Shown here: piece after piece, positions 2,863 to 60,814 of the stretch | Layout of the letters: the number at the start of each line of letters is the position of its first letter | Position numbering within the stretch: position 1 is the first letter of the stretch | NCBI GenBank assembly: GCA_964016885.1 | Contig: OZ024758.1 | Location: 15,748,001 to 15,812,000 of the forward strand | Length of the DNA: 64,000 bases | Source: Eledone cirrhosa | Taxonomy: Eukaryota | Direction: 5' to 3' | The notes under the pieces: model-generated | Told to the model about the DNA's origin: nothing | What the model saw: only the letters and a program-made list of their open reading frames with translations | Databases searched by the model: none | Position numbers and translations under genes: made by a program

Positions 2863-3197
2863 TGGAGGCACATGGCTTAGTGGTTAGAGCATTGGCCTTG
2901 CAATCGAAAGGTTGTGAGTTCAATTCTCAGACCGGGTGATGTGTTGTTTCCTTGAGCAAGACACTTTATTTCACATTGCTCCAGTTTACTCAGCTGTAGA
3001 AATGAGATGATAGGACTGGGGTCCATATCATTCCACTGCAAAGTGGTCGTGGAGGTGCCATAGCAAAAAAGCACCCAGCACTCACTGTAAATGAGGTTGG
3101 TGTTAGGAAGGGCAGCCAGCTGTAGAAATCAAGCCAGAATCAGTTCCCGTCCCACCCTTGCAAGCAGGGAAAAGCAGACGTAAAATGAAATGATGAT
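2863..3197 (+). mobile_element. tRNA-derived CORE-type SINE (family A) with RTE-derived 3' tail
   Basis: A box TGGCTTAGTGG, B box GAGTTCAATTC, CCTTGAGCAAGACACTT core; tail shared with the RTE LINE; near-identical copies at 27697-28020(+), 42575-42918(-), 54695-55030(+). Confidence 0.85.
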
Positions 3198-3381
3198 ATG
3201 TAGAACAATATATGTAGAACAATAAATATGTTGACTAGACACTTTCTGGTTCACAACATATCATGTTACCTTATTTTATCTGATGAGAGCGCAACTATCG
3301 TCCCAGGATGATATTTGTTTTTGAAATGTGCATAATAAAATATATGGAACTTTTTTAACCATCTTTTAATTTCTTCTTATA

Positions 3382-3444
<63 letters not shown>

Positions 3445-3791
3445 GACCCCGACAGCTGAGCTCCGGCTGTTTCAACAGCTAGATTCGGATCTAGCTGTCG
3501 AAACGACCAGAGCTCAGCCATCTGGGTCCCGAATCTTTTCATATATTACCCACTCTACTACCCTAAGTATCGAGTACTCTGGTGGGTTATGGCCCACCTG
3601 GTATTTTACCACACCTTATCTGATATATATATGTATATATATGTATATGAGTTAATCAGCTGAAAATATATAATAATAATAATAATAAATGTGAAGACTA
3701 AAATCCAAAGAAGATCCCGTTGAGGGTGAAAGCAGCGATTCTTTGCTTAAACTTTAATCTGTTATTTTAATAAATAAATATATATATATAT

Positions 3792-4051
3792 ATATCTTTA
3801 AGTCGTTTGGAAGCCTCGACAATGCAAATGGGTAAATCTCCGGGTAACAAGGTCCGGTGGTGGAGAGAGAGATGTAAGTGGGTGTACGTTGAGATGCGTG
3901 GTGTGTATAAGATGTGTGAGATGTGTAGAATGAAGGGAAGAGTATAAAGGACCTTGTTACCCGGAGATTTACCCATTTGCATTGTCGAGGCTTCCAAACG
4001 ACTTAAAGATATTTACTTATTGTTCCACAATGCTTCAAGCAAACTTCAATA

Positions 4052-4058
<7 letters not shown>
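3792..4058. mobile_element. (TA)n-embedded element with 64-bp perfect inverted repeats and a one-sided tail
   Basis: Arms 3792-3855 and 3949-4012, purine-rich spacer, ~45-bp tail, then (TA)n. Confidence 0.7.
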
Positions 4059-4107
<49 letters not shown>

Positions 4108-4134
4108 GAAAGTGAACAACACAATATATAACTA

Positions 4135-4202
4135 CTCCATTACCAAAGGTTTCAGGATCCTAGACAATATTAACATATGTCTAGTTCACTCATCAGACAG
4201 AA
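4135..4202 (-). ncRNA. Type I hammerhead ribozyme motif (Penelope-like element pLTR)
   Basis: Minus strand: UUCUGU-CUGAUGA-(GUGAA CUAGACA...UGUCUAG GAUCCU)-GAAA-CC UUU GG-UA^AUGGAG. Core complete; helix I has wobble pairs; the base of helix II is imperfect. Confidence 0.65.
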
Positions 4203-4375
4203 GGGTTTTCTATTAACCCCTCTATCTGGAGTAGTAATGGAGTAGTTATATATTGTGTTGTTCATTTTCTTATTAAATAGCTCTGTTCTATAGCACTCTT
4301 TTTTCCTTTGCTTTTTCTTTGGAAATACCTAATATATATATATATGTATTCTTGGTGTCTAAGATAAAAAATAAA

Positions 4376-4417
<42 letters not shown>

Positions 4418-4643
4418 TCTTGTAGAAAACCAGCCAGAAACAGTCCTATATGAGTGAGACATGGTCACCTGACACAATTTGCCTCTTAATAGGACAAACC
4501 CGTCTAACCCATGCTAAGGTGGAAGATGGAGGACATTAAATGATGATGATGATGAGTTAATCAGCTGAAGTTTTTGGTGTCTTAAGATAAATATATATAT
4601 AACACACACAATTTAATCAGCTGAAATTCTTAGTGTCTAAGAT

Positions 4644-4681
<38 letters not shown>

Positions 4682-4962
4682 TCATAGATTGAGTTAGAAA
4701 CTCAAAATAGTCTTTTACAATTAAATAGCTCAAGGAAGGGAATCTTTCCGAGCCGTGTAATACAATTGAATATATGAGAGGGATGAACACCGATGCGAGT
4801 ATACATGTGTTCGAATTGCAAATGACCAACGAGAAGAGTTTGTTGATTATTGGGTAAGAAAATTGCTCCCACACTGAACTGAAGACACTTAATTAACTAA
4901 CGACCCCAAATTAAGAATTTACTGTTAATGTTAGAAGGATTTGATTAGAAGAAAGACATTTG

Positions 4963-5697
4963 TAACCCTTTTGATACAAAACTGCCTGAAACACTCCTGG
5001 TTCTATGGTACCAAACAGCTTGAAACCACCTCTGGTTCTACAGTACCAAACAGCTTGAAACACCCCTGGTTCTACGGTACCAAACAGCTTGAAACACCCC
5101 TGGTTCTACGGTACCAAACAGCTTGAAACACCCCTGGTTCTATGGTACCAAACAGCTTGAAACACCCCTGGTTCTACGGTACCAAACAGCTTGAAACCAC
5201 CCCTGGTTCTATGGTACCAAACAGCTTGAAACACCCCTGGTTCTATGGTACCAAACAGCTTGAAACACCCCTGGTTCCATGGGAACAAAACTGTTTGAAA
5301 CACCCCTGGTTCTATGGGCACAAAACTGTTTAAAACTACCTCTGGTTCTATAATACAAAACTGTTTATGTTTATCTAAAAACCTTCCATCATAATTTTAT
5401 GTAAGAACCTTTGTTAAGTTATCTTCCAACCATCCCTGATTCAACGATACAAGACTGCTTGAAAATGTCCTTGGTTGTATGATACAAAACTTTGTTTTAA
5501 AGTGTTTATATTTATCTAAAAAAAAACTCCCATCATAATTCTATGAAGGAGTCTGTTATGTTATGTTCCAAACTCCAGATTAATAATGAGGAAATTAGTT
5601 ATTTGACTAAATCTCTTCAAATTATTGATTATTTTCAAAATTATTTGGAAATCATGGGGAGTGTCTTTCATTAGAAATAGGGTAATGAAAGGATTAA
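4963..5697. mobile_element. Second TTAA-type MITE family with an internal 34-bp tandem array (4985-5350)
   Basis: TAACCCTTT...AAAGGATTAA ends; unit CTTGAAACACCCCTGGTTCTACGGTACCAAACAG about 10 times; related copies at 36490-36973, 41200-41432, 50470-50735. Confidence 0.7.
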
Positions 5698-6210: not shown

Positions 6211-6410
6211 TCAGATAAGGTGTGGTAAAAAACCAGGTAGACCATAACCCACCAGAGTACTCAGTACCTGGGGTAGTAGAGTGGGTAATATGAAAAGATT
6301 CAGGACCCCGACGGCTGAGCTCCGGCTGTTTTGACAGCTAGATCTGAATGTTCGGATCTAGCTGTTGAAACAGCCAGAGCTCAGCCGTTGGGGTCCTGAA
6401 TCTTTTCATA
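6211..6410 (-). mobile_element. (TA)n-embedded fold-back element; family also at 3444-3623(+) and 18714-18915(+)
   Basis: ~120-bp palindrome plus a conserved ~80-bp one-sided tail ending in (TA)n. Confidence 0.75.
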
Positions 6411-7817
6411 TATATGTGTGAGTGTGTGTGTGTGTGTCTGTGTCTGTACTTACATTTACTGTCTATTAGTGATTCAACAGTAAGAAATCAATAAAATATG
6501 TATGAGACTCGAAGACATAAGCACTGGGAGTCATTATTATCAACTAAATCCCTCCAAAGTGTTGCCCCAGCATGGCCAGTCTAGTGAAAGAATAAAAAAA
6601 ATATAAAAAACATATTGTAATTTCTTTGAAAAGGAGAGTCCAGTTAAGTGTTTTTGTTGTGATAAATGTTAACCTCTGAGTTAATTTTTGTTTAATTCCA
6701 AACAGATCCATTGACGAGAAGAATCTGTAAGAAGTTTAATTATAAGTTAGCTAATTAATTAACACAAATTGTCAACGGAAGTTTTAAATTTTGTTGTAGT
6801 TCCTGTAAAGATAGGTAAATTTTTTATTAGGTTTTCTAGATTTTATAAATCTTATTTTATTTTCCCTCCGTATCCCTTCTATCATCACATTATGGCTATT
6901 GTCTCTGTTATTTGATATTGTAATATCTCTTACTCTATATCTTCTTCTTCTCCTCTCACTTATTCCTGAGAGGGTCGTGGGGCAGAGTCCTCAAACACTC
7001 CTTCCAGCAGGTCCTGTCAGAAGCAACCATCTCCAACTGATCTGCTTGGATCCGCAAGCGTGACCAGCCAAGCTCATGGATGTTATCCAACCATCTTGCC
7101 AGTTGGTTTTGCCTGTAAAATCTATCCAGCGATTCTTTCCAGAGACATTCTAGCCACATGCTTATAGTAAGAGCTATGATCTCTCAATTTGGAGAAGTAG
7201 CAGCTCTACCTGGAGAAACTCTTTGATCTCCGAGTTACACATTCTTTCCTGAGACATTCTAACCACATGCCCTTAATATCAAAACTGTGCTCTTTCAATT
7301 CCTAGCAATAGCAACTCTACCTGGAGTGACTCTCTGATCTCCGAGTTACACATTCTTTCCTGAGACATTCTAACCACGAGCTTATAGTATTGGAGCTGTT
7401 ATCTCTCAATTCGGAGAAGTAACAGCTTTTATCTGTTACTGTATATCTTTTTTTCTTTCTTGTGGACACAGCACAGCTTAGTTGAAAGGTCAAGTAGTTC
7501 ACTTCACAACATTAAGATCCTGGATTTGATCCCACAGCATCATATCTTGGGTTAACCCATGCCTTTTGAGTGATATTGGGTAGATGGAGACTGTTTGGAA
7601 TCTTGTCATAAGGACTGTACAGAGCTTCCATTACAGTTTTGGGGAGGGGGAGCTTAAGTATATAAACTGTACATATGTGTTGTTGTTATTGTTAGCTCAT
7701 GCTTAGGGTGGGGGAATGGCAGTATAGGGTAGAGCATTGGATAGAAAGTAAAGGTTCTGTGATAGAAAATAAGCCAATCAATCATGTTCTCAAAACAGAC
7801 ACAGCCAGCCATTACAG

Positions 7818-15875: not shown

Positions 15876-16232
15876 ATCAACAACAATATTATTTTTTAAT
15901 ATCGTAGTAAGGTTTTATCCTTCTTCTCCAAAATTACAGTGAGCCCAAATCTTGCATGATCAATTAATTTAACCCCCCCCCCCCCTGGTTATTAAAAAAC
16001 TATGTATGTTCAAGATCCCTATATGATAGTGTCTGTTACATCACTGTTTTGGAGGAGACATAACACCAGCTTCTCTGGGAGTTGAAGAAAACTCAGGAAA
16101 CTCAGCTTCATGTGGAAGAGGACGTTTTTTTTTAATTTCATAAAAAAATATTTTCCTGCTGCATATGTTCATAACTCTATAACTTGTATCACCCAATGTA
16201 TTGAAATAATCTGTAATTTCATATAATTTCAG

Positions 16233-16408
16233 ACTAAAAAAAGCTGGCTTTCCAATCAATCTGTTACCACATGTTAAAGAAGCTGGGTCTGGTGCAGGAA
16301 CTCTAAAGTGTGACTGGTTCTCAATTCCAAAAGGAATCCCAGTGCTTGTTGCATTAGGAGACTTACAGTGTGCTATCATGTCCACTATTAAAGATAGTAC
16401 AGATGCAG
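16233..16408 (+). CDS. SHPK: Sedoheptulokinase (FGGY family), internal exon (LKKAGFPINLLP...IPKGIPVLVALGDLQCAI)
   Basis: TTTCAG/GTTGGT boundaries; resembles human SHPK GFPVHLLP...VALGDLQASV. Confidence 0.92.
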
Positions 16409-16447
16409 GTTGGTCACATTCCTTTCTCTATTTCAGTCTAGGTTGTG

Positions 16448-17755
16448 TTAACTCCTTAGCATTTAAACAGACCATATCTGGCCAGAATTCTCTCACCTCT
16501 TTCTGTTCAAATCGACCATATCTGGCTAGAATTCTCTCACCTCTTTCTGTTCAAATCAACCATATCTGTCCAGAATTCTCTCACCTCTTTCTGTTTAAAC
16601 AGACCATATCTGGCCAGAATTCTCTCACCTCTTTCTGTTTAAACAGACCATATCTGGCCAGAATTCTCTCACCTCTTTCTGTTTAAACAGACCATATCTG
16701 GCCAGAATTCTCTCACCTCTTTCTGTTCAAATCAATCATATCTGGCCAGAATTCTCTCACCTCTTTCTGTTCAAATCGACCATATCTGGCTAGAATTCTC
16801 TCACCTCTTTCTGTTTAAACAGACCATATCTGGCCAGAATTCTCTCACCTCTTTCTGTTCAAATCAACCATATCTGGCCAGAATTCTCTCACCTCTTTCT
16901 GTTCAAATCGACCAGATCTGGCTAGAATTCTCTCACCTCTTTCTGTTTAAACAGACCATATCTGGCCAGAATTCTCTCACCTCTTTCTGTTCAAATCAAC
17001 CATATCTGTCCAGAATTCTCTCACCTCTTTCTGATTAAACAGACCATATCTGGCCAGAATTCTCTCACCTCTTTCTGTTTAAACAGACCATATCTGGCCA
17101 GAATTCTCTCACCTCTTTCTGTTTAAACAGACCATATCTGGCCAGAATTCTCTCACCTCTTTCTGTTCAAATCAACCATATCTGTCCAGAATTCTCTCAC
17201 CTCTTTCTGTTTAAACAGACCATATCTGGCCAGAATTCTCTCACCTCTTTCTGTTTAAACAGACCATATCTGGCCAGAATTCTCTCACCTCTTTCTGTTT
17301 AAACAGACCATATCTGGCCAGAATTCTCTCACCTCTTTCTGTTCAAATCAACCATATCTGTCCAGAATTCTCTCACCTCTTTCTGTTTAAACAGACCATA
17401 TCTGGCCAGAATTCTCTCACCTCTTTCTGTTCAAACCAGCCGTAACAGATTAATACAAATGTCACAACTCCTTTTTTCCAGCTGAAAAACTGCAGCAATG
17501 TGGAAAGAACGTGTTAAATGTATAATGCAGATGCAGTATTCATCTCGTTTAGCATTTAAACTGGTCGTATCCAGCCAGAATTCTCTCACCTCTTTCTGTT
17601 CAAACCGGCTGTAACTAGTCACTCATATTTATGTTAAGGTATTGTTCTCAAAATAAATAATATCAAAATCTCATAGATTTGATATTATGTGAGATAAAGC
17701 CTTCATCGTGAAAATAGAATAGTATATATAGTAATGTGATTGCTAAAGGGTTAAA
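16448..17755. repeat. TTAA MITE containing an internal 44-bp tandem array (~22 copies, 16464-17435)
   Basis: Unit AAACAGACCATATCTGGCCAGAATTCTCTCACCTCTTTCTGTTT is the subterminal segment of the MITE; MITE termini flank the array. Confidence 0.9.
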
Positions 17756-18420: not shown

Positions 18421-19814
18421 ATAATACACTTGAAAATGTGTTTAGCCAAATCTCCTTTAAATTACAGTCTTGGTTTAAGAAAGGGAACTACAAACTGTAT
18501 ATAGTCCTAAATATATTCTATGCATCTTCCAAAAGATCGCTTTATGTCCACTTTTCCATGCCACCATTATTGACTGGACCTTTTTAAGGACATTTTTTAA
18601 AACCAGGTGTCCTACCAGATGCCAACCATTTTAGTTGGTTCTTATGCTGGGCCAGCAGAAGGTCTTCAGAGAAGAACCCCACCGCTCAAGCCCTTAACTT
18701 ATATATATATATATATGAAAGAGTCGGGACCCCGACGGTTGAGCTCTTGCCGTTTCAACAGCTAGTTCCAGTCTGGAACTAACTGTTGAAACGGCAAGAG
18801 CTCAGCCGTCGGGGTCCCGACTCTTTCATATAACCATACTCTACTACAAGTACTACAAGTATCAAGTACTCCGGTGAGCAATGGTCTAACTAATTTTTTA
18901 CTGTATCTATCTTAATATATATATACGAACAAAAAGCGCCCGGCCCACATTGTAAAGTGGTATCACAACAAAAAGTACTCAGTACTCACTATAATTGTGG
19001 TTGGCATTATGAAGGACATCTAGCTGTAGAAACCAATCAGTTCTGTATGAGCAATACATGGCCGGCTGACCTGGTTTGTATCTTAACGGGACAACTCGTC
19101 TAAGCCATGCTAGCGAGGAAAATGGACGTTAAACGATGATGATGATATATTTATAATCGAACACTTTGAACCCCACGTTAATTTAGCTACTCCCATAACA
19201 AATCTGGGATACACATTGAAAAACTTTTAATCATCTTTAAAAAAAAAAATTTAATTGATTTTATTTTCTACCCATGATGCAACAGTAGAAGAAATGACCA
19301 AGTTAGCGACATCAGTTACCTGGAAAAATTTTGGGTGAAATCTCAAGAACGATAACTTTGCCTGTCTTAGTTTGCAAAATTGGGTGTCAAAAAATTATTG
19401 AACGACTGTATTTTTCATCTGCAGAGTTCAAAGCATTTTTTAAAGCACTCGTGTCGGCTGTTTGTTTCAATGATATCTATTTTTTTAATTTAAATTAGTT
19501 TAAAGGAATGTTTATTATACATACATAAGAATGTATGTGTCGTCTGCTTTTATATTTACAACAAGCAACCACATCGTATCGCGTGATATAGTCGATCACA
19601 TCAACCCCAAAATTATGTTATCGATCAGTTTTGTCGAACCGCTAATTTACGAAACGTTTCTCTAATACATTCACGTTTTTCTAATACATATACACATATA
19701 CACACACTGTATGTGTATATATATATATATTAAAATAACAGATTAAAGTTTAAGCAAAGAATCGCTGCTTCCACTCTTAACGGGATACACTATATATATA
19801 TATATATATATAGT

Positions 19815-22080: not shown

Positions 22081-22833
22081 GTGAGTGATTTTAATTTTGT
22101 TTGTAATGTCATGCTAAATGATAAATAGTAGATAAAAGATGGTTCTAAAAATCTGTCTAGAGTCCAGAGTCTAATTAGGACTGTACATATATCGGTTTTC
22201 ATGGTGTCAAGTGACTGAGAGTACGAGACTCTCCTCTGGACAGGATGCCAGTCCACCATAGTTAAACTCCCAGCAAGCTTGCCTAAAACTACACATATGC
22301 ATCAATGTATACAACTCTAGAGGTGGCGAATTGGCAGAGTCATTAGAACGTCGTATAGAATGCTTCACGGTATTCATTCCAGCTCTCTGAGTTCAAGTTT
22401 GCCTTTCAACCTTTCAGGGTTGATAAAAAAAAATACGTCTTGCAATGGGGTCGATTCTTCTTCTATATCTCTTCCTCTGGAAGAAATCTGCTGTACTCGG
22501 GCCTGGAGAGGGATGGGCTCTGCCAGGCTTAAAATGCCATGTCAATACAGCACCCCTATGACTCTATCAAGAGTTATGGGACCACAACTCTACTCTGCAT
22601 ATTTTGACTCCCTCATGTCATTACTTCCCATGGGAAAAAAATAAAGGTAGATAGTTTTTTGACAGTTTGTCTGCAATGATTCAATTACAAGGCATTGGTC
22701 AACCTGCAGCTATTGTAGAAGACACTTTAAGACACTTTTCAGTGGGACTGAACCCCCAAACCATGTTGTTGCAAAACAAACTCCTTAACTATACACCTTT
22801 TTCTCTTTTATTTATTTATTTATTTTTTCACAG

Positions 22834-23243
22834 GTGTTCAATTAGAAGAAGACCAAGTGTGGCAAAAGCTTATAAAACTTGCTGAAAAAGTACCAAATAC
22901 TGATCTCCAAATTGTACCAACTTTACAGGGAGAACGTCATAAACCAGATCAGCGAGGAAGTGTAGCTGGACTTAACATGAATAACATGTCTCTGGGAAAA
23001 GTGTTTCGTGCTCTGTGTAGTGGTCTTGTTGAGAATTTGCACGACATGATGCCAAACACTTACCTGGAAGATCACGGCATTAAACGGATCATTGCGAGTG
23101 GCTCTGGTGTCACTAGGAACCTGATTGTTCAACAAGAAGTAAAAAGATGTTACAAGACACCAATGGTCAACGGTGACCGCTGTGATTCTGCCTTAGGAGC
23201 TGCATTATGTGCAATTAATTCCTGCTGTAAGAGTTCACACTGA
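22834..23243 (+). CDS. SHPK: Sedoheptulokinase, last coding exon (PTLQGERHKPD...RALCSGLVENLHDMMP...DSALGAAL*)
   Basis: CACAG acceptor, TGA stop at 23243; resembles the human SHPK C-terminus. Confidence 0.94.
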
Positions 23244-52000: not shown

Positions 52001-55000
52001 AAAGCCTTTACCTTGAAAATATAATAGTAAATATAGTGTAATGTAAATGTTAAAGGGTTAAGACAATAAACTAACCTCTTGTAAAAGACAATGTACAATA
52101 CTTCCATATAACATATGCATATTTCCTTTGTCAATTCCCTGCAAATATATAAAAAAACATTTACATTATAAAATAAAACAACCAATTCTTCACCAAAGTC
52201 ATTATATAAGGACTAAATAAAGATAATTTTTTTTTCTATTTTAGGCACAAGGCCAGCAATTCCCAGTACATTACTGGTACTTTATTTTATCGACCCCGTA
52301 AGGATGAAAGGCAAAGTTAACCTCGGCGGGATTTGAACTCAGATCGTAAAGGGACGTAACTATGCTGGAAAGCATGTCCGACCCTCTACCGATACTGCCA
52401 AAAAGATAATGTCAAGAAGAAAGGATTCTAGTGATGTCAGAGACATGACAACCTCTCAAGTGTTGGTGCCATGATAAAATACAGTAGGAACATTGTAAAT
52501 TGGTTGGTCTTAGGAAGGTCATCCAGCCGTAGAAACCATGCCAAAAATTGGAACATATCAATAAGACATGACCCACTACTCTATCTTGGAGGGTAGTAAC
52601 TTCATAGAAAAACTCATTTATCATCATTACCATCACTGTTTAACTTCCCTTTTTCCACACTAGCATGGGTTAGACGAGTTGTTCTGCTGTGAATCAAGTC
52701 ATATTAGGTGACTGTGTCTTGTTCATACAGAACTGTTTCTGGCTTAGTTTCTAAGGCTGGATGCCCTTCTTAATGTCTATCACATTCACAGTGTGAACTG
52801 GGTGCTTTTTATTGTGACACCTACATGGCCACTCTTCAGTGTGGACTGGCTGCTTATTCAATGTATGCCAGGATAGAAAGAGGACATAAAATGATGATGT
52901 CTCCCTTTTAGGGTTATTCTACCAACTAAAGAAGTTCCGCACCATATATATATATACAAGTTAATATAAATTAATATATGATAAACATTAATATAATCAT
53001 ATAAGTGTTTGTATTGCAAATGACCAAGTTAGCTAGATTGAAAAGTACTAATTAGATTAATACAGTTTGCCTGTCTCGATTTAAAATAATAAATCAATAA
53101 TTGATTTATTATTTTAAATCGAGACAGGCAAACTGTATTAATCTAATTAGTATTTTTCAATCTAGCTAACTTGGTCATTTGCAATACAAACACTTATATG
53201 ATTATATTAGTGTTTATCATATATTAATTTATATTAACTTGTATTTCACGGCTCAGAAATACTTCTTTCTTTGAGCTAATTAATTGTAAAAGACTGTTTG
53301 AGTTTATAACTCTATATATAGTATATATATATATATATATATCCAAACAGATATTTATTTCTTAATGCCATGCAGTATTTAGTCCTGTCTTAAGTCACAG
53401 CAATGTGTATGTGTGTGTGTATAGTCCCATCAGTGTCTGTACACATATTAAACATTTAGAAAGTCAAAATAATAAATATAGTAAATAAGACACTAACCCT
53501 GAACCTTTCATTCAAAACTGCTCTGAAATATAAAAATTAAAAAGATTTTTAAAAGACATAACTTACAAAGGAAATATCATGTAGAAATCAGGGCCAAATA
53601 CAATATCCAGTATAATTTAATCCTTTAACATTTACATTATTCTATATTTACTATTATATTTTCATGGTAAAAGCTTTACCTTACTTAATATTGAATCTAT
53701 GAGATTTTGATATTATTTATTTTGAGAACAATACTTTAACATCAGAATAAGTGGCAAGTTATGGCTGGTTTGAACAGGAAATTTCAGGCAAGCACAGAAA
53801 ATAGACGTTAACCAGTGCTGAAGATGATGGAGGGGTTTTAAATAAATATTAAAACTTTGTAAGAAACAGTTCTGTACAGCAGAAACAGGGGAGATTTCAG
53901 GCAGTTTAGTATTAAAAGTGTTAAAGGGTTTATCAAATAACAAAGGAAAAACAAATGAAAATGTCTGCAACTTACTTTCTCATACAAAACAAAGATGAAA
54001 CAACTGTCGTACTAGAGACCAAGGAGTCAGGATTAATTACAAGTAAACCTCTCTCATCAGCTATGTGATAAACACCACTGGAATCAGTTGTAGCATCAAG
54101 AATATGGACAATATCACCTACTGCAGCATTGCTGTAACACCTGAAAATATACACCTGCTTTATAATAACTGTATACACCTGTACAGTTATAATAACTGTA
54201 TACATCTGTACAGACATTTCAGAATAATACTAAGAGCAAATGGATATATATACCCATCAAATACATGTTCTCTTGTGGTTGATTGGATAAGCTACACCTT
54301 CCGATGAGGGTCCAACCAATCGATTAAAGATCATTTTTTTCAATTTACAGGGAAATTCCTATTTTCTGGGAAGTTTACATGCCTACATATTAGATATCCT
54401 CATCATCATCATCGATTAACACCGGTCTTCCACGCTAGCATGGGTTAGACGGGTCCCATTTAGAGGCAAGTTGGGTCGGGTGATCATGTCTCCCTTATAT
54501 AGGAGTGTTTCTGGTTGATGCCCTTCCTAACGCCAACCACATGGACCGTGTGGGCTGGGTGCTTTTTGTTGTGACAATGTGTATATATATATTTATATAT
54601 GTTGGTGCAGTTTCAGCTACACTCCTTGTATTTATACAGATATAACTTTATCATACACTTCAGCTGCTAGCACACTTCTTAATATATGTTTATGTAGGCA
54701 CATGGCTTAGTGGTTAGAGCATTGGCCTTGCAATCGAAAGGTTGTGAGTTCAATTCTCAGACCGGGTGATGTGTTGTTTCCTTGAGCAAGACACTTTATT
54801 TCACATTGCTCCAGTTTACTCAGCTGTAGAAATGAGATGATAGGGACTGGGGTCCATATCATTCCACTGCAAAGTGGTCGTGCAGGTGACACGGCAAAAA
54901 AGCACCCAGCACTCACTGTAAATGAGGTTGGTGTTAGGAAGGGCATCCAGCTGTAGAAATCAAGCCAAAATCAGTTCCCGTCCCACCTTTGCAAGCAGGG

Positions 55001-58000
55001 AAAAAGTGGACGTAAAATGAAATGAAATGAAAAAATGTATATGGTAAATTAATTTTATAAAATGGTGCAACTTAATTCAAGCAAGAGAAAGTTGAAAGTA
55101 TTTTCAACTATATCAAAGACATGACAACTTCCATAGTGTTGGTGATTTACACAATAAACACACCCAGTACACTCTGTAAAGTGGTTGCTGATGGGAAAGG
55201 TGTCTAGCCATAGAAAACTTGTCAACAAACCCTAACCCTAACTCCATCCTTGAAACTACTTACCAAAATCCATGCAACATACATGAAATAGTTTGTTCTT
55301 TGTTGATCAAAACCAACTCAATTTCTTGTCTGAAAGAAACAAGTAAATATAGTATTAGTACTGAGATTGTTAAATGTTATCAAATAGACAGAAAGTAGTT
55401 GATTTAATGACAAGATACACAGGAAAAACCCATTCTAGATAATCTCAGATAAACCCTTTTGTTACCACATAAATATATATCTAATAAAAATCACTACCTA
55501 TGATTTTCAAATAATTTTGAAAATAATCAAGAATTTGGAGGGATTAAGTATAACTAACTTTTTTGTTATTCTAAGTAATCAGTGTCGGTTGATCAAAGAA
55601 TCAACCAACTTGGTGTAATCAGATGTAAGCACTCCACATCCATGGGTATAATAAGGTATTACTTATATGGTATCAGACAGAGTATCAGTATTATTAAAAA
55701 GAAGAGAGCCAGTATCATGTATACAACTTCAGTTTATTACATGTACTATACTGAGGATACGTATGTGATATTGTCTCCCTCTTCTTCATCATCATCATCA
55801 TCATCATCACCGTTTTACGTCCGTTCTTCCACGCTAGCATGGGTTAGACGGGTTGTCCTGTTGTGGGCAGTGTCTGGTCGGCTGACCTTGCCTTGCTCAT
55901 ACAGGAACTGATTTGGCTTGATATCTACAGCTGGATGCCCTTCCTAACACCAACCTCATTTACAGTAAGTGCTGGGTGCTTTTTCGTGGCACCTACATGT
56001 CCACTTTACAGTGAGTGCTGGGTGCTTTTTCGTGGCACCTACACGTCCACTTTACAGTGAGTGCTGGGTGCTTTTTCGTGGCACCTACATGTCCACTTTA
56101 CAGTGAGTGCTGGGTGCTTTTTCATGGCACCTACACGTCCACTTTACAGTGAGTGCTGGGTGCTTTTTCGTGGCACCTACACGTCCACTTTACAGTGAGT
56201 GCTGGGTGCTTTTTCGTGGCACCTACATGTCCACTTTACAGTGAGTGCTGGGTGCTTTTTCATGGCACCTACACGTCCACTTTACAGTGAGTGCTGGGTG
56301 CTTTTTCGTGGCACCTACATGTCCACTTTACAGTGAGTGCTGGGTGCTTTTTCATGGCACCTACACGTCCACTTTACAGTGAGTGCTGGGTGCTTTTTCA
56401 TGGCACCTACACGTCCACTTTACAGTGAGTGCTGGGTGCTTTTTCGTGGCACCTACATGTCCACTTTACAGTGAGTGCTGGGTGCTTTTTCGTGGCACCT
56501 ACACGTCCACTTTACAGTGAGTGCTGGGTGCTTTTTCGTGGCACCTACATGTCCACTTTACAGTGAGTGCTGGGTGCTTTTTCATGGCACCTACACGTCC
56601 ACTTTACAGTGAGTGCTGGGTGCTTTTTCATGGCACCTACACGTCCACTTTACAGTGTGGGCTGGGTGCTTTTTAATGGCACCTACACGTCCACTTTACA
56701 GTGTGGGCTGGGTGCTTTTTTGTCATGGCACCTCCACGGCCACCTTGCGGTGGGGTGTGTGGGGGTATATTGTCTATATGCTTTAGCTTGTACCCATGGG
56801 AGGTCGGGTACTCTGTATTACTGCGCGACGCCAGAGGTCACGGTCGTGTGTCATTGCCTTTGAGAGGTGTAATTGGGTATGGTAACTCTTTTTATAATTA
56901 AGTTTCTGTTAAGCGTGGTGGATTGGCAATATCGGTAGAGTGTCGGACAACAATTTTTGCAGCATATAGCCACGTCCCCTTACATTCTGAGTTCAAATTC
57001 TGCTAAGGTTAGCTTTGTCTTTCATCCTTACAGGGTTGATAAAATAAAGTACCAGTAACAAACTGGGGTTGATTTAATCGGATTTTTTCCCCTCCCCCAA
57101 ATTGTTGGCCTTGTGCCTAAATAGTGATGGTGGTGGTGGTGGTAATGACAATAATGATGATGATGATTATTAAACAGATATATTTAGAGATATTAATATC
57201 CCCAATTCTGTATTACTTACCCTTCAGATTTGACATCAATGACTTGGTAACGATTATACAAAGTACACACAGGAGCACAGGACAGTGGATTATCTTTTAT
57301 ACTGAAATAATAAAATAAATAAACTCTGGACAATTGCAGAACAGGAAGCAAACTACAAGAAGAAAAAACCCCTAACATTTTAACTGGCCGTATCTGGCCA
57401 GAATTCTCTCACCTCTTTCTGTTTAAACCGGCTGTAACCAGTCACTTAAACATGATGTTATGGTATTATTCTCAAAATCTCATAGATTCGATATTATGAG
57501 AGGTAAAGCCTTTACCACGAAAATACAATAGTAAATATAGAGTAATGTAAGGCTATTTTTCTTTGCTAGAATAGGGGTCAGCTTTTCGGGGACCCATTGT
57601 AGGCTTCAAACTCAACAAGTGGTATTTTTTTTTAGGCAGCATTTTATGGCCTGATATCCTTCCAGACATCAACTCTTTCATCTAGAAAGCTGGATACACA
57701 CAGATATAAACAAATTGGAAAAGAAATAAAGAAAAATTGAAAGCATAAAAGAAAAAAAATTAACTTACGTTTTCGTTTCAGATTTAAAAGGAGAAAGTTT
57801 TCTTATTTCATCACAGAATTCCTCATCAAAGTCTGACAATTTAGACATGGACATGTTATCATCAAAGTCAAAAGACGAATCCCATTGAGAAAGTTCTATA
57901 ATGTTTTTTTCTTCATCAAGCTTATTCTTATGTTCCAGTGATATATTGTTATTGCTTACAGAAGAAACAAGTTTTATCTCAGGAACTGTAGAACATGAAG

Positions 58001-60814
58001 TAGGTGAGTTAGGTTTAGGTTTGGTTTGAATGTGTCTTGGATTAAGATCCACTAAGTTTGTCATATTATCGTTTTTACTAGTACCAACCACACTAGTAAC
58101 ATTGGATGTTTCCATATTTGATTCAATGGCATGATTATTTTTTATATCCAGAGACATATCATTGTGAATTTTATTCGGATCAATGATATTGTTTGATAAT
58201 GTCTTATCATTGGAACTAATCTCTTGGAGAATTTCAGACAATATTTCTTTATCGTTAATAGAAAATTCACTTTCAATTGTAGGCTTGTCTTTTGGAACAT
58301 TTTCCACACAATTCTTAACTTTAGTCATTATTTGATTATCTTTAAATAATTTCTTACTTTTCGTCACTGGAATTTCTGCTAGAATTTCAGATAAAAACGT
58401 ATCACCTGCATCGTCTGATTTTTTCACATCTTTATCTTTTCTTTTTCCGAACCAATTAAACACTTTATTTTGAGTACTGCTGTTACTATCATTTTTATTC
58501 AAGGTATTGATGGACACACTTGGATTACCTTCAGAATCTGGAATATTTTCAGGATGATTACACGTTTCTAAATTCTGAAAATTCTTTGGAACATTTTCTG
58601 TAGGGGTTTCAGAACAATCATTTTGTAACCAAACATCGTTTGGGTCAGGAGTTAAGTTTTCCCACTTAGCTAACAGTTCATCTGAGTATGATTCATTGAT
58701 ACTAAGAGTATTTTCTGGAGTAATATTTTTATCCTCATCATTAGGAGGAAACAAGCTAGATAACTCAACGACATGTGCAGCAGTATTATGCAATGATGTT
58801 TCAGTCTGTTTTAATTCTCTACTAGGAACACGTTTTGACAATGGTGAACACCCTGAAACTGCCAACCGTTTAACAGATGTTCCTGAAGAACCAGTGTAAT
58901 TTTTTACAGGGGTCACTGGTTTTTCAATAGGTTCTGTTGCTTTCAAGGCTGTGTATTCCACATTAGTGTCTCTACATCCTATAGATTCATCTTCTTTCAC
59001 ATATTTCTTTTGAATTTTAGGCTTTAATAATTTATTTTTACGATTAACTTTTCTCGAAGTTGAAGTCTCAAGACTCTGATTTATTCTGTTTTCCACCGTG
59101 TTTTTTAAACCAACAGACGAAGAGAGGAAGCTGCGTTTATAAGATTTTTGGGGCTTTCTCTCAGGGGTCTCTTCTACAAAACAACGGCCAGTTTTACAGT
59201 TTGATCCTTTTACAAATATAGGCGAAGAAAACTGTTCAGGAAAACTAGAAGTGCTATCTTTCGGAGAAACTAAGTCAGAAGTTATTCCCATTTCTGATTT
59301 CTCTTTGCATCTTGGTACGTTTGAGTTATTTGGAGAAGAATCTTTATCAAATTTCCCTAAACCATCAAAAGTGTCAGTTTTTTTTGTAGAAATTTGTTTG
59401 ACTGGTGTTTTAAGCACAGGAATAGAATTAGTCATATTAACCGTTTCCACATTCATAGCTTTTGATATGTTGGAACAATTCTGCAGAAGATGTGCACTAG
59501 TAGTTAAATTATCATCAGATACACAGACATTCTTTGAGGAAGTTCCATGATGAGAGACTTCAGGAATCTCAACAGTTTCTTTTTCTACTGATTTCACAAT
59601 GTCTGAGGTAGTTGGGAGAGAAAATGGACTAAAATTAGTCAAATCATCGAAGGCACTAACTGTCTTAGAACAAGATTTTCGGGGTTGTGGATCAGGAATT
59701 ACATTCAACTTGTTAATAATGTCTGTTGTATTCTGATTTGGGCCAGTAACCATTGTAAACAGCAATGGATTTGTGGAGGTATGACATGGAACGGATGGCT
59801 TCTCAGGACTTCTAGTAGTTTCTGTTTGGTTCTGTACTTTGGTAAAATCTTCCTGTTGTGTCGACACATAAACAGTTGATGTCTTTCTCGACAGCCGTAA
59901 TCGGTTTTTGAAATTTGGTTTTCCAACAACAGAAAACAAATTACCTTTATTTGAATTATTCTAAAAACAAAATAATAATAATAATAATAATTTCATTTAT
60001 TATAAAGACGAAAGAAACTACAGTACAATACAAAATAATTGTTTCTACTTTTGGCACAAGGCCAGCAATTAACCCAGTGCATTACTGGTGCTATATTTTA
60101 TTGACTCCATAAGGATGAAAGGCAAAGTTAACCTCGGCAGTATTTGAACTCAGAACGTAAAGGGCCGTTACTCTATACTGCAAAGCATGGCGTCCGACCC
60201 TCTACCGATACTGCCAATCCAGTACAATACAAAATAAAATAATGCAAATAAAGAATATATGAAATGCATTGTCTTACCATAAAGAAGGATATTTTTGGCT
60301 GGCTGGAATCCTAAATAAAATGAAAATAAAATCTGTTAGACAAAGTATAAAGAAATAAGTCGGTGTGGTGGGTTAAAATCCTAATTATCTCAATTCTACT
60401 TCCTTTACATCAGGAATACCCAAATTGTTTTAGTCCATTGACCACTTCATGAAATCCCACTTAAGGATAAATTATAGCCCTTTTCCTACTGACTAAGTGA
60501 TTAACAAGTTTAAGGTCGCATTCATGAAGACACGAGAGGTTCCAGTGCTCTTAGCTATATCGTTATCTTTTGTTCTGGCAGTGGTTCGTTTGTCCCCCCC
60601 TTTCGCCTGCCTTTTGATGTATGTGGTCCAAGATGTGTGTATTTTTTCTTCTTTTCCTTTCTTTATACAATTGTGAATAAAAACTTTAACTCTCAAAAAT
60701 ACAGTGCAGAGTAGGAATTGCAAAAAAAAAAAAAAAAAAGTATTAAAGAATCTCCATAAGTTCAAAGTTCTATAGAGACATATTTACCGAGGCGGCTTTC
60801 CCAGGTTTCCCCAT
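27000..60814 (-). CDS. DNA2: DNA replication ATP-dependent helicase/nuclease DNA2, 32 coding exons, 1760 aa (whole gene span)
   Basis: Exons join in a consistent phase (5283 nt = 1761 codons). Motifs: Fe-S cysteines (LFCMRK; [10 protein letters not shown]), nuclease [18 protein letters not shown]...PLELKTG, SF1 helicase [55 protein letters not shown]. Confidence 0.96.
27036..28391 (-). other. U12-type (minor spliceosome) AT-AC intron of DNA2
   Basis: 5' ATATCCTTT (28391-28383); branch box TTCTTTAAC (27053-27045) followed by TGAAATTAC| acceptor. Confidence 0.88.
27697..28020 (+). mobile_element. SINE family A copy (inside the U12 intron)
   Basis: Near-identical to 2863-3197. Confidence 0.85.
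28392..28538 (-). CDS. DNA2: DNA2 exon 31 ([20 protein letters not shown])
   Basis: AG acceptor; ends at the U12 donor ATATCCTTT; motif VI. Confidence 0.93.
28695..29065. repeat. 40-bp minisatellite interrupted by a SINE B insertion
   Basis: GGACCCTAGGCTTCAACACATACAGCCTTATAAATAATGA units on both sides of 28765-28948. Confidence 0.8.
29279..29488 (-). CDS. DNA2: DNA2 exon 30 ([12 protein letters not shown]...[11 protein letters not shown])
   Basis: AG/GT; helicase motifs IV/V. Confidence 0.95.
30471..30563 (-). CDS. DNA2: DNA2 exon 29 (VPAPE...NSIEAKLI)
   Basis: AG/GT; NxxEA motif. Confidence 0.92.
31296..31376 (-). CDS. DNA2: DNA2 exon 28 (PWMLDVV...VLFLNT)
   Basis: AG/GT; FLNT motif. Confidence 0.88.
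31455..31780 (+). mobile_element. RTE-clade LINE fragment
   Basis: [18 protein letters not shown]...WYGQV, degenerate. Confidence 0.8.
31936..32041 (-). CDS. DNA2: DNA2 exon 27 ([17 protein letters not shown])
   Basis: AG/GT; conserved SNxLxYxGxLxCG. Confidence 0.93.
32783..32869 (-). CDS. DNA2: DNA2 exon 26 (GMDKSLF...LQYRMN)
   Basis: AG/GT; QYRM motif. Confidence 0.94.
33224..33790 (+). mobile_element. Internally deleted Tc1/mariner transposon
   Basis: ~90-bp TIRs starting CAGGGGTTGGACAAAATAATG after TA; ORF 33413-33748 is the Tc1 N-terminal paired-like HTH ([12 protein letters not shown]...[13 protein letters not shown]); DDE domain absent. Confidence 0.9.
33962..34200 (-). mobile_element. 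Penelope-like element 3' end with degenerate minimal hammerhead
   Basis: Minus strand AUGAAGA-A-GGGC UUAU GCCC-GAAACGUC (34080-34053; C3 mutated), then AATAAA, a short tail and (TA)n. Confidence 0.6.
34228..34427 (-). CDS. DNA2: DNA2 exon 25 (VVATTC...[11 protein letters not shown]...VGDSKQLPP)
   Basis: AG/GT; Walker B and motif III. Confidence 0.95.
34956..35084 (-). CDS. DNA2: DNA2 exon 24 ([12 protein letters not shown])
   Basis: AG/GT; FLRxG motif. Confidence 0.92.
35698..35813 (-). CDS. DNA2: DNA2 exon 23 (GKTSTIVAL...[13 protein letters not shown])
   Basis: AG/GT; Walker A GKT and motif Ia. Confidence 0.93.
36327..36375 (-). CDS. DNA2: DNA2 exon 22 ([11 protein letters not shown])
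   Basis: AG/GT; first half of Walker A. Confidence 0.92.
37666..37718 (-). CDS. DNA2: DNA2 exon 21 ([15 protein letters not shown])
   Basis: AG/GT; helicase Q motif LNxxQ. Confidence 0.9.
38582..38661 (-). CDS. DNA2: DNA2 exon 20 ([12 protein letters not shown])
   Basis: AG/GTGAG; LRxLIID motif. Confidence 0.9.
39370..39492 (-). CDS. DNA2: DNA2 exon 19 (FKVDK...NNLITLM)
   Basis: AG/GT; phase consistent. Confidence 0.88.
39527..40773. repeat. ~65-bp minisatellite present as two duplicated blocks (39527-39935, 40406-40773) around an RTE fragment
   Basis: Both blocks begin TTATTATGTAAACCAGAATTATTCTGAAAGTTCTAG. Confidence 0.88.
39985..40323 (+). mobile_element. RTE-clade LINE 3' fragment
   Basis: [12 protein letters not shown]...GRPRKTW; (TGA)n tail. 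Confidence 0.87.
40818..40967 (-). CDS. DNA2: DNA2 exon 18 (barrel domain)
   Basis: AG/GT; DGVAVSIE...[17 protein letters not shown]. Confidence 0.88.
41440..41900 (+). mobile_element. Second RTE-family LINE fragment (related pieces at 495-676, 6955-7260, 29120-29250, 37790-38100)
   Basis: [30 protein letters not shown]. Confidence 0.7.
42260..42364 (-). CDS. DNA2: DNA2 exon 17 ([10 protein letters not shown]...FKRH)
   Basis: AG/GT; ERExxGxCIxNL motif. Confidence 0.88.
42575..42918 (-). mobile_element. SINE family A copy
   Basis: Near-identical reverse complement of 2863-3197. Confidence 0.85.
43320..43505 (-). CDS. DNA2: DNA2 exon 16 ([20 protein letters not shown]...IWC...ER)
   Basis: AG/GT; stalk-region similarity to DNA2. 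Confidence 0.9.
43665..44080 (+). mobile_element. RTE-clade LINE 3' fragment, rearranged
   Basis: [24 protein letters not shown]...GRPRKSW; (TGA)n tail. Confidence 0.83.
44222..45225. repeat. 54-bp minisatellite (~18 copies) in a DNA2 intron
   Basis: CACACATGTAGCCTACACCAATAGAATCATCCATGTCTTACTCCTACTTC(C/T) unit; explains the 338-aa repetitive ORF. Confidence 0.95.
45237..45652 (+). mobile_element. Two tandem copies of tRNA-derived SINE family B
   Basis: TGGCAGTATCGG A-box-like, GAGTTCAAATCCC B box, GCCTTTCATCC..GGGGTCGATAAA central domain; further copies at 28765-28948, 31095-31240, 37045-37232, 50794-50980, 52230-52400, 56915-57122, 60035-60220, 62575-62760. Confidence 0.82.
45662..45833 (-). 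CDS. DNA2: DNA2 exon 15 (LIQLRNE...[13 protein letters not shown])
   Basis: AG/GT; three Fe-S cysteines CxxCx5C. Confidence 0.93.
46380..46640. repeat. 22-bp minisatellite derived from the 3' end of DNA2 exon 14
   Basis: CATGTTTGGCTAAAACAGGGAG unit, about 9 copies. Confidence 0.85.
46645..46765 (-). CDS. DNA2: DNA2 exon 14 ([24 protein letters not shown])
   Basis: AG/GT; QVxLY and GLLLYLK motifs. Confidence 0.93.
47924..48004 (-). CDS. DNA2: DNA2 exon 13 (VVPLELKTG...EHKGQ)
   Basis: AG/GT; ELKTG nuclease motif. Confidence 0.93.
48623..48665 (-). CDS. DNA2: DNA2 exon 12 ([14 protein letters not shown])
   Basis: AG/GT; catalytic Asp of the PD-(D/E)XK nuclease. Confidence 0.93.
48825..49125 (-). 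mobile_element. CR1-like LINE 3' end fragment
   Basis: Same 3' end family as above. Confidence 0.75.
49674..49742 (-). CDS. DNA2: DNA2 exon 11 ([10 protein letters not shown])
   Basis: AG/GT; diagnostic DNA2 motif. Confidence 0.93.
50312..50419 (-). CDS. DNA2: DNA2 exon 10
   Basis: AG/GT; [28 protein letters not shown]. Confidence 0.87.
51399..51484 (-). CDS. DNA2: DNA2 exon 9
   Basis: AG/GT; [28 protein letters not shown], phase consistent. Confidence 0.85.
52076..52138 (-). CDS. DNA2: DNA2 exon 8 ([21 protein letters not shown])
   Basis: AG/GT; MLxGxxxH nuclease histidine motif. Confidence 0.9.
52955..53243. repeat. 289-bp near-perfect palindrome (143-bp arms, 3-nt loop)
   Basis: Arms 52955-53097 and 53101-53243; flanked by (TA)n and a ~70-bp tail. 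Confidence 0.93.
53498..53522 (-). CDS. DNA2: DNA2 exon 7, 25-nt micro-exon (AVLNERFR)
   Basis: TTTCAG/GTTAGT; needed to restore phase; resembles human RRAVLSETFR. Confidence 0.85.
53976..54140 (-). CDS. DNA2: DNA2 exon 6 (GDIVHI...[25 protein letters not shown])
   Basis: AG/GT boundaries; first Fe-S cysteine. Confidence 0.93.
54695..55030 (+). mobile_element. SINE family A copy
   Basis: Near-identical to 2863-3197. Confidence 0.85.
55264..55329 (-). CDS. DNA2: DNA2 exon 5 ([22 protein letters not shown])
   Basis: AG/GT boundaries; CxLxxxW OB-fold motif. Confidence 0.88.
55955..56720. repeat. 46-bp tandem array (~16 copies) expanded inside a SINE/RTE-tail element (55795-56810)
   Basis: TTACAGTGAGTGCTGGGTGCTTTTTCGTGGCACCTACACGTCCACT; occurs as a single copy in SINE A and at 32475-32765. 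Confidence 0.92.
57221..57301 (-). CDS. DNA2: DNA2 exon 4 ([27 protein letters not shown])
   Basis: AG/GT boundaries; NRYxV matches the start of the conserved DNA2 core. Confidence 0.88.
57769..59960 (-). CDS. DNA2: DNA2 exon 3, 2192-nt exon encoding a low-complexity N-terminal region
   Basis: 724-aa ORF in the track; TTTTAG acceptor at 59962-59961, GTAAG donor at 57768; phase 2 joins exon 4 in frame. Confidence 0.88.
60278..60310 (-). CDS. DNA2: DNA2 exon 2 ([11 protein letters not shown])
   Basis: TTTAG acceptor, GTAAG donor, 33 nt, phase 0/0. Confidence 0.72.
60788..60814 (-). CDS. DNA2: DNA2 coding exon 1 (putative start; MGKPGKAAS)
   Basis: ATG at 60814, donor GTAAAT, upstream acceptor TTTCCAG at 60843-60842 (implies a 5' UTR intron); phase 0 matches the next exon. 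No homology support. Confidence 0.6.

Follow-up and report, generated by a model that had tools for sequence, protein, structure and literature searches.

Penelope-like elements (PLEs) of the Hydra clade have been described before, together with their hammerhead ribozymes, their inverted copies, a tail that is often found at one end only and their targeting of (TA)n repeats (PMC8557442). Section 11 of that paper gives RWK, DKT, a CxCx5C linker and the absence of CCHH as diagnostics of the clade. How PLEs form their tails and inverted ends is named in it as an open question, to which in vitro work has given a partial answer: working on uncleaved RNA, a PLE protein cut both strands and extended each of them, with initiation at the two sites flanking the tail (PMC11167929). 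The monomer activity of metazoan PLE hammerheads is low or nil (PMC4209133).

We analysed a stretch of 64,000 nucleotides from Eledone cirrhosa (the window, to which all positions refer), in which an initial annotation had pointed out a hammerhead within an inverted-repeat element. The insertion unit runs from 4103 to 4332 (230 bases), is non-coding and inverted in layout, and is flanked on both sides by (TA)n. The left tract (4057-4102), in which it inserted, and the right tract (4333-4345) were both delimited by sequence; a target-site duplication is unreadable within the repeat. The short arm (4103-4209, minus strand) contains the entire hammerhead and extends from about -67 to +38 relative to the predicted cleavage site, where it stops at the short end of the family; on this scale, which is used throughout, +1 is position 4140 on the minus strand. 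The main part of the long arm (4234-4332, plus strand) runs in sense direction from -3 to about +102. It includes the short-end site at about 4267-4277 and a tail of about 60 nt (4278-4332, plus strand) that leads on into the 5' UTR and ORF in ORF-linked copies. The inverted repeat is slightly longer than had been described (4098-4143 versus 4234-4279, 46 nt, 93% identity), and the ATTAAA-containing tail and (TA)n flanks are present as reported. ATTAAA, at 4272-4277, is a marker of the short end of the element, and not necessarily a polyadenylation signal.

The breakpoint of the inversion had been placed at the cleavage site of the ribozyme. This overlooked an extra inverted piece at 4214-4226, a second copy of the 5' strand of helix I (-68 to -56). 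In the 5' part of the long arm (4214-4233, plus strand) it is fused to +2 to +8, after which the sequence restarts at -3 (4234) and continues to about +102 (4332). On account of this piece the true inversion centre is placed in the spacer separating both arms, at about 4208-4213. Both arms of the window copy reach the -69 edge, and what interrupts the sequence near the cleavage site is not the inversion point: the long arm has lost the ribozyme core by an internal deletion (-56 to +2) and carries a short duplication. The same junction was found at one other locus (L228), 189 kb away on contig C19, with flanks that are not shared. Contigs from two sequencing runs of one sample did not span the locus, and the 64-kb window contained no remnant of a parent ORF.

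The complete minus-strand core claimed for the hammerhead was confirmed, both by the sequence and by a descriptor fitted to the motif, which gave 1 match in the window and 0 in 200 dinucleotide shuffles; as the descriptor was tailored, this is a lenient test. The layout is that of a type I hammerhead, with a CUGANGA / GAAA / NUH core, helices II and III closed and helix I open. CUGAUGA is at 4196-4190, followed by helix II (4189-4154), of which the distal stem (CUAGACA, 4184-4178, with UGUCUAG, 4166-4160) is stable and the base is weak (G-U, U.C, two pairs, A.A). The segment 4153-4141 holds GAAA (4153-4150), a 3-bp helix III with a UUU loop (A-CC-UUU-GG-U, 4150-4142) and the GUA triplet, with U16.1 and A17 at 4142-4141 and predicted cleavage between 4141 and 4140. 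Helix I comprises 6 bp (4202-4197 with 4140-4135), to which the family adds a 2x2 loop and 5 bp, and is indeed wobble-rich, with 3 G-U pairs. The 10.1-11.1 pair, usually G-C in hammerheads, is G-U in the window copy, with U.C next to it. The Rfam models did not pick up the motif: cmscan of positions 3000-5500 (E ≤ 5) gave 21 matches with no hammerhead among them.

The minimum free energy fold of the isolated motif was not better than that of shuffled sequences (z -0.36), with helix I pair probabilities of about 0.1-0.14. When the minus-strand transcript of the whole unit was folded (z -12), the inverted arm, which emerges first, captured the partners of helices I and III, and the pair probabilities of these helices were 0.005 or less. 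Because the inverted arm takes these partners, the ribozyme of the window copy is predicted to be sequestered and hence inactive. A second type I hammerhead-like motif, with an 8-bp A/U helix I, CUGAUGA, a long helix II and a near-palindromic helix III, is located at 3272-3345 (plus strand). It is probably from another PLE family; akin motifs with a rewritten helix II occur in many of the loci that were fetched.

A similarity search of the host genome (3.0 Gb) with the unit yielded 1586 candidates; 40 were scored, 39 of them other copies, near full length at 79-87%. Exact matches to a 26-mer, a 25-mer and a third pattern numbered at least 441, 442 and 131 genome-wide, against 0 for the controls, and these counts are lower bounds on the size of the family. 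The copies sit in (TA)n and related tracts, which is the insertion preference of the Hydra clade. The window copy was aligned with 61 of 87 extracted motifs (62 rows), leaving out rows with indels, second arms, helix I strands replaced at a junction, and sister families. Core conservation in this alignment is partly built in, since extraction needed a near-intact core; among 27 non-duplicate loci picked by upstream sequence alone, 20 had a perfect CUGANGA and 23 at most one change.

In the alignment 89.5% of the helix cells were paired, versus 33-53% for slid controls. A U-A/C-G swap was seen in 18 of the 62 rows, and several G-U/A-U swaps preserve pairing on the ribozyme strand. The 10.1-11.1 pair was A-U in 25 rows, G-U in 12 and unpaired in 25. 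Double-change pairs (3) did not exceed shuffles (mean 4.0), the single frequent compensatory change may stem from one inherited event, and RNAalifold on the 62 copies gave no consensus structure. The sister families L127/L122, L128, L135 and L136 have the same core and cleavage triplet, with helices I and II rewritten yet well paired. Judged by comparison of the sequences, this rewriting across families is stronger evidence of conservation than the thin covariation within the family. In the master element the hammerhead is likely conserved as a motif that depends on a dimer or on assistance by protein. The core of the 3' hammerhead copy is without A9 in the L128 family.

Three of the copies selected by upstream sequence extend beyond the tail, and in 9 of 20 loci fetched with post-tail DNA the GAAA/cleavage anchor is directly upstream. 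The start of the own-family ORF lies about 225 nt beyond the cleavage site, and in the copies examined the frame is broken. Its pieces contain RWK, DKT, FDIVDFY, YRDDG, CxCx5C and VVY..YVG, the stretch from VVY to YVG being free of Cys (locus L092). RWK and DKT are present both in L092 and in the sister L128, and the intact 714-aa ORF of L128, which is 49-79% identical over segments to the broken own-family ORFs, has CxxC and CxH near its C-terminus. There are many sister families in which a frame of 714-719 aa is open, L127, L128, L129 and L122 being among the young Hydra-like ones with intact frames. The ORF was unrecognised in Pfam and PDB sequence searches; a segment from L092 had 84 database relatives. 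A fold model from the single sequence was unusable (pLDDT 34); with 60 sequences the L128 model reached pLDDT 92, and its nine best matches in a fold search were all telomerase RTs.

These results bear out the Penelope-like origin proposed for the hammerhead unit: a type I hammerhead in a pLTR, an inverted 5'-truncated copy and a tail at one end are all found here, and ORF-linked copies carry Hydra motifs. Linking the tail to a full-length element with RT and GIY-YIG had also been proposed as a check. The tail leads to an RT ORF, in which the VVY..YVG motif pair marks a candidate GIY-YIG domain; profile searches gave no GIY-YIG match, nor did the fold matches listed for the full-length model include a GIY-YIG structure. 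The own family yielded neither an intact ORF nor a copy in which two pLTRs bracket an ORF, and the tandem arrangement pLTR-ORF-pLTR was seen only in a sister family (L122). By its sequence, the unit is almost certainly the non-coding end of a Hydra-clade PLE. Three loci were rejected as parents or links. The 2.6-kb inverted pair L061 is not a full-length parent, as the interior between its arms is a DNA transposon (L061:2050-4520, presumably hAT-like) with terminal inverted repeats and an 8-bp duplication, centred in a fold-back unit. L215, a direct pair of 2.3 kb, has no ORF and reflects local duplication, and in L102, where an ORF is followed by a hammerhead, the link is interrupted by other repeats and was not used.

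Arm ends were surveyed with an anchor at +14 to +38, outside the ribozyme, taking the first 100 of the 442 matches (contig C1 and part of C2); two loci already in hand were skipped and five duplicates removed, and the survey set held 85 loci with 133 arms. The initial annotation allowed for a non-autonomous retrozyme insertion with its inversion breakpoint at the cleavage site; on this reading the hammerhead cut of the RNA would set the breakpoint. The long arms of the window copy and L228 do jump from 1-3 nt off the cleavage site to the 5' strand of helix I, similar jumps occur in L006 and L024, and 3 of the 133 arms begin exactly at +1. However, of the 124 arms with their ends in the interval from -80 to +14, only 4 break within 3 nt of the cleavage site, where about 8 were expected (p=0.96 for enrichment). 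Most arms run intact across the site, and internal deletions with microhomology are spread all over the motif. In addition, cleaved RNA ends would not yield ends at +40, +105 or -69, and the 85 anchored loci contained no head-to-tail array of the unit, the only direct pair being a 2.3-kb local duplication. As a family rule the cleavage-defined breakpoint is largely refuted, and a retrozyme-like element of this kind is very improbable. The initial description of a short non-autonomous PLE insertion holds for a short, non-coding PLE end; its retrozyme variant is not supported, given the missing arrays and ends that lie off the cleavage sites.

The 5' ends showed a different pattern. The chance that an arm ends climbs toward the 5' edge of the ribozyme: 33 of the 46 arms reaching -63 stop at -73 to -63, and 14 end at exactly -69, with positions blurred by microhomology of about 5 nt. 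At a fixed threshold, 36 motif matches reach -69 and 8 extend further upstream. In a younger sister family (2994 exact anchor matches, 30 loci examined), none of the 26 arms reaching -63 end at -73 to -63 (p=3e-10). Stalling at helix I was considered as a general cause of the pile-up and rejected, since the pile-up is absent (0/26) in this sister family, of which helix I is stronger. From the pile-up in the family of the window copy and its absence in the sister family we infer that the template of the former likely starts near -69, either at the start site of an internal promoter or as a short non-autonomous RNA; for Penelope an internal promoter start site has been demonstrated (PMC2377424). 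The 2994 anchor matches of the sister family far exceed the few copies noted for Hydra-1_Obim.

At 46 of the 85 loci two anchored arms were in inverted orientation, and at further loci the second arm of the inversion was cut short. A short end (at about +38 to +44) was combined with a long end (at about +102 to +108) in 39 of the 46 pairs, where 21 were expected (p=5e-8); by eye, one pair was short-short and one long-long. Some of the pairs are non-independent (L173-L175 have a common junction). The same short and long pairing was found in 6 of 6 pairs of the sister family, and non-inverted copies finish at either site. Arms of one insertion differed at 33 of 245 subfamily sites, a share to be set against 47% in random copies and 7.7% where sites are invariant; this fits arms drawn mostly from one template source, with exceptions.

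The explanation that we favour, as probable though far from assured, is that the unit is an inverted Hydra-clade PLE end produced by priming at two sites followed by joining. The RT-endonuclease of the element would nick both DNA strands of the (TA)n target. Priming, with one event per strand, would take place on uncleaved RNA at two sites past the cleavage site, at about 40 nt for one cDNA and about 105 nt for the other. Both cDNAs would run off at the 5' end of the RNA near -69, one of them skipping the ribozyme core in the window copy, and would be joined head to head by microhomology. L1 twin priming with end joining is an analogue of this route. In vitro priming on two strands at two sites (PMC11167929), taken with the pairing rule, makes one priming event per strand the likeliest arrangement, and on balance the two-site, two-strand mechanism itself seems marginally favoured. 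A more specific version can be put forward only tentatively: a short hammerhead RNA of about 175 nt, non-autonomous and starting at the 5' edge of the ribozyme, would be mobilised in trans by the Hydra RT, and the one-short-one-long rule would be the genomic footprint of an asymmetric PLE dimer that, from a single RNA, primes the two target strands at separate sites.

The long and short asymmetry would also follow naturally from a single priming event, if the cDNA from +105 reached the 5' end of the RNA, snapped back on its self-complementary ribozyme helices, copied itself to about +40 and joined (TA)n by A/T microhomology. Arm similarity is accounted for equally well in this way, rare alleles are common to both arms in 12 of 39 pairs, and certain junctions lie at helix I/II complementarity (overlaps of 5 nt in L206, 26 nt in L164 and 22 nt in L168). 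Yet ends at +40 are also found in non-inverted copies, so that +40 can prime first, and four pairs (L038, L047, L144 and L205) differ at three subfamily sites, which suggests separate RNA-templated copies. The extension of both strands in vitro (PMC11167929) also speaks against snap-back, which we regard as a serious rival, though the less likely explanation. For the window copy in particular, the junction has only one other occurrence in the genome, also on C19 at a distance of 189 kb and without common flanks, and another junction, with differing ends, is common to three C1 loci within 380 kb. The copy could therefore have arisen from a nearby fold-back unit by copying at the DNA level (gene conversion or repair between TA tracts), and not by its own reverse transcription. 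We give this somewhat less than an even chance; it leaves the origin of the first unit unexplained, and local retrotransposition of a fold-back transcript is an alternative to it. It is compatible with two-site priming and joining as the explanation for the founder unit. Clusters with a shared junction suggest some later local copying at the DNA level. The C1 loci L173, L174 and L175 have one common junction and different flanks; two of them, L173 and L175, also have the same derived ends around a centre in opposite orientation, which suggests local copying together with inversion between arms.

Elsewhere in the window, an inverted unit with 72-nt arms (96%) lies in (TA)n at 3784-4056, with a tail of about 40 nt on one arm only, a short and long layout. 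Three fold-back units of one further family, with one-sided tails, are located at 3445-3620, 6255-6411 and 18712-18870; GAG(C/T)ACTC is present in two of these three tails, and also in the tail and 5' UTR of Hydra families. A palindrome of 291 nt (98% identity) at 52954-53244 adjoins (TA)n. Frames with exon-like stretches, which seem sugar kinase-like, were seen at 16210-16686 and 22752-23243 (plus strand), and the PLE unit may lie within or upstream of the gene to which these frames would belong. The 731-aa open frame at 57765-59960 (minus strand), rich in Ser, Asn and Lys, is likely a large host exon.

The locus itself is ordinary transposon scrap. The one-short-one-long rule, for which we found no statement in the literature searched (most subscription papers fall outside it), holds in two families and is a sharp prediction for a reconstituted reaction; intact sister ORFs and about 3000 anchor matches are available for testing it. 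The data also speak against hammerhead cleavage as what defines the inserted cDNA. If true, the asymmetric dimer would account for the tail of Penelope-like elements as well as for their inverted pLTRs.

Of the described systems, non-LTR retrozymes (PMC7229834; bioRxiv 10.64898/2026.07.22.740005) resemble the unit in being short, non-coding and PLE-related and in carrying a type I hammerhead. They are, however, described in these sources as head-to-tail tandem repeats that yield circular RNAs, whereas the window unit is inverted and solo. With the minimal hammerheads of PLEs (Cervera and De la Pena 2014, PMC4209133) the family shares solo and opposite-strand motifs from truncated PLEs, a weak helix III and a long helix II; compared with the examples given there it is nearer to canonical hammerheads (helix III of 3 bp, helix I of 6+5 bp), and G10.1-C11.1 is absent. 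The Poseidon element PAc of Anolis (Frangieh et al. 2024, PMC11167929) is alike in its two tail-bounding initiation sites downstream of the hammerhead, its AT-rich target and its use of uncleaved RNA. It belongs to another clade, and its ORF starts within the hammerhead, unlike that of the window's family, which starts about 225 nt past the cleavage site; the parts of that paper referred to here report neither a difference in start site between strands nor a pairing of one short with one long end. The closest system is the EN+ PLEs of the Hydra clade (Craig et al. 2021, PMC8557442; Hydra-1_Obim, Penelope-13_HM), which likewise have RWK, DKT and CxCx5C, no CCHH and a single ORF of about 700 aa, as well as a type I hammerhead with a short helix III, a (TA)n target, inverted 5'-truncated copies and a one-end tail. 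The own-family ORF resembles the Octopus Hydra-1_Obim protein in the supplement of that paper, a likeness judged by eye alone, and other Hydra motifs in the supplement likewise show a mismatch at 10.1-11.1. The hammerhead sequence of the window's family is not the motif given there for Hydra-1_oBim, its tail is about 60-65 nt versus the 30-40 given for the clade, and most of its copies are ORF-less units of 110-300 nt with their 5' ends piled up at about -69.
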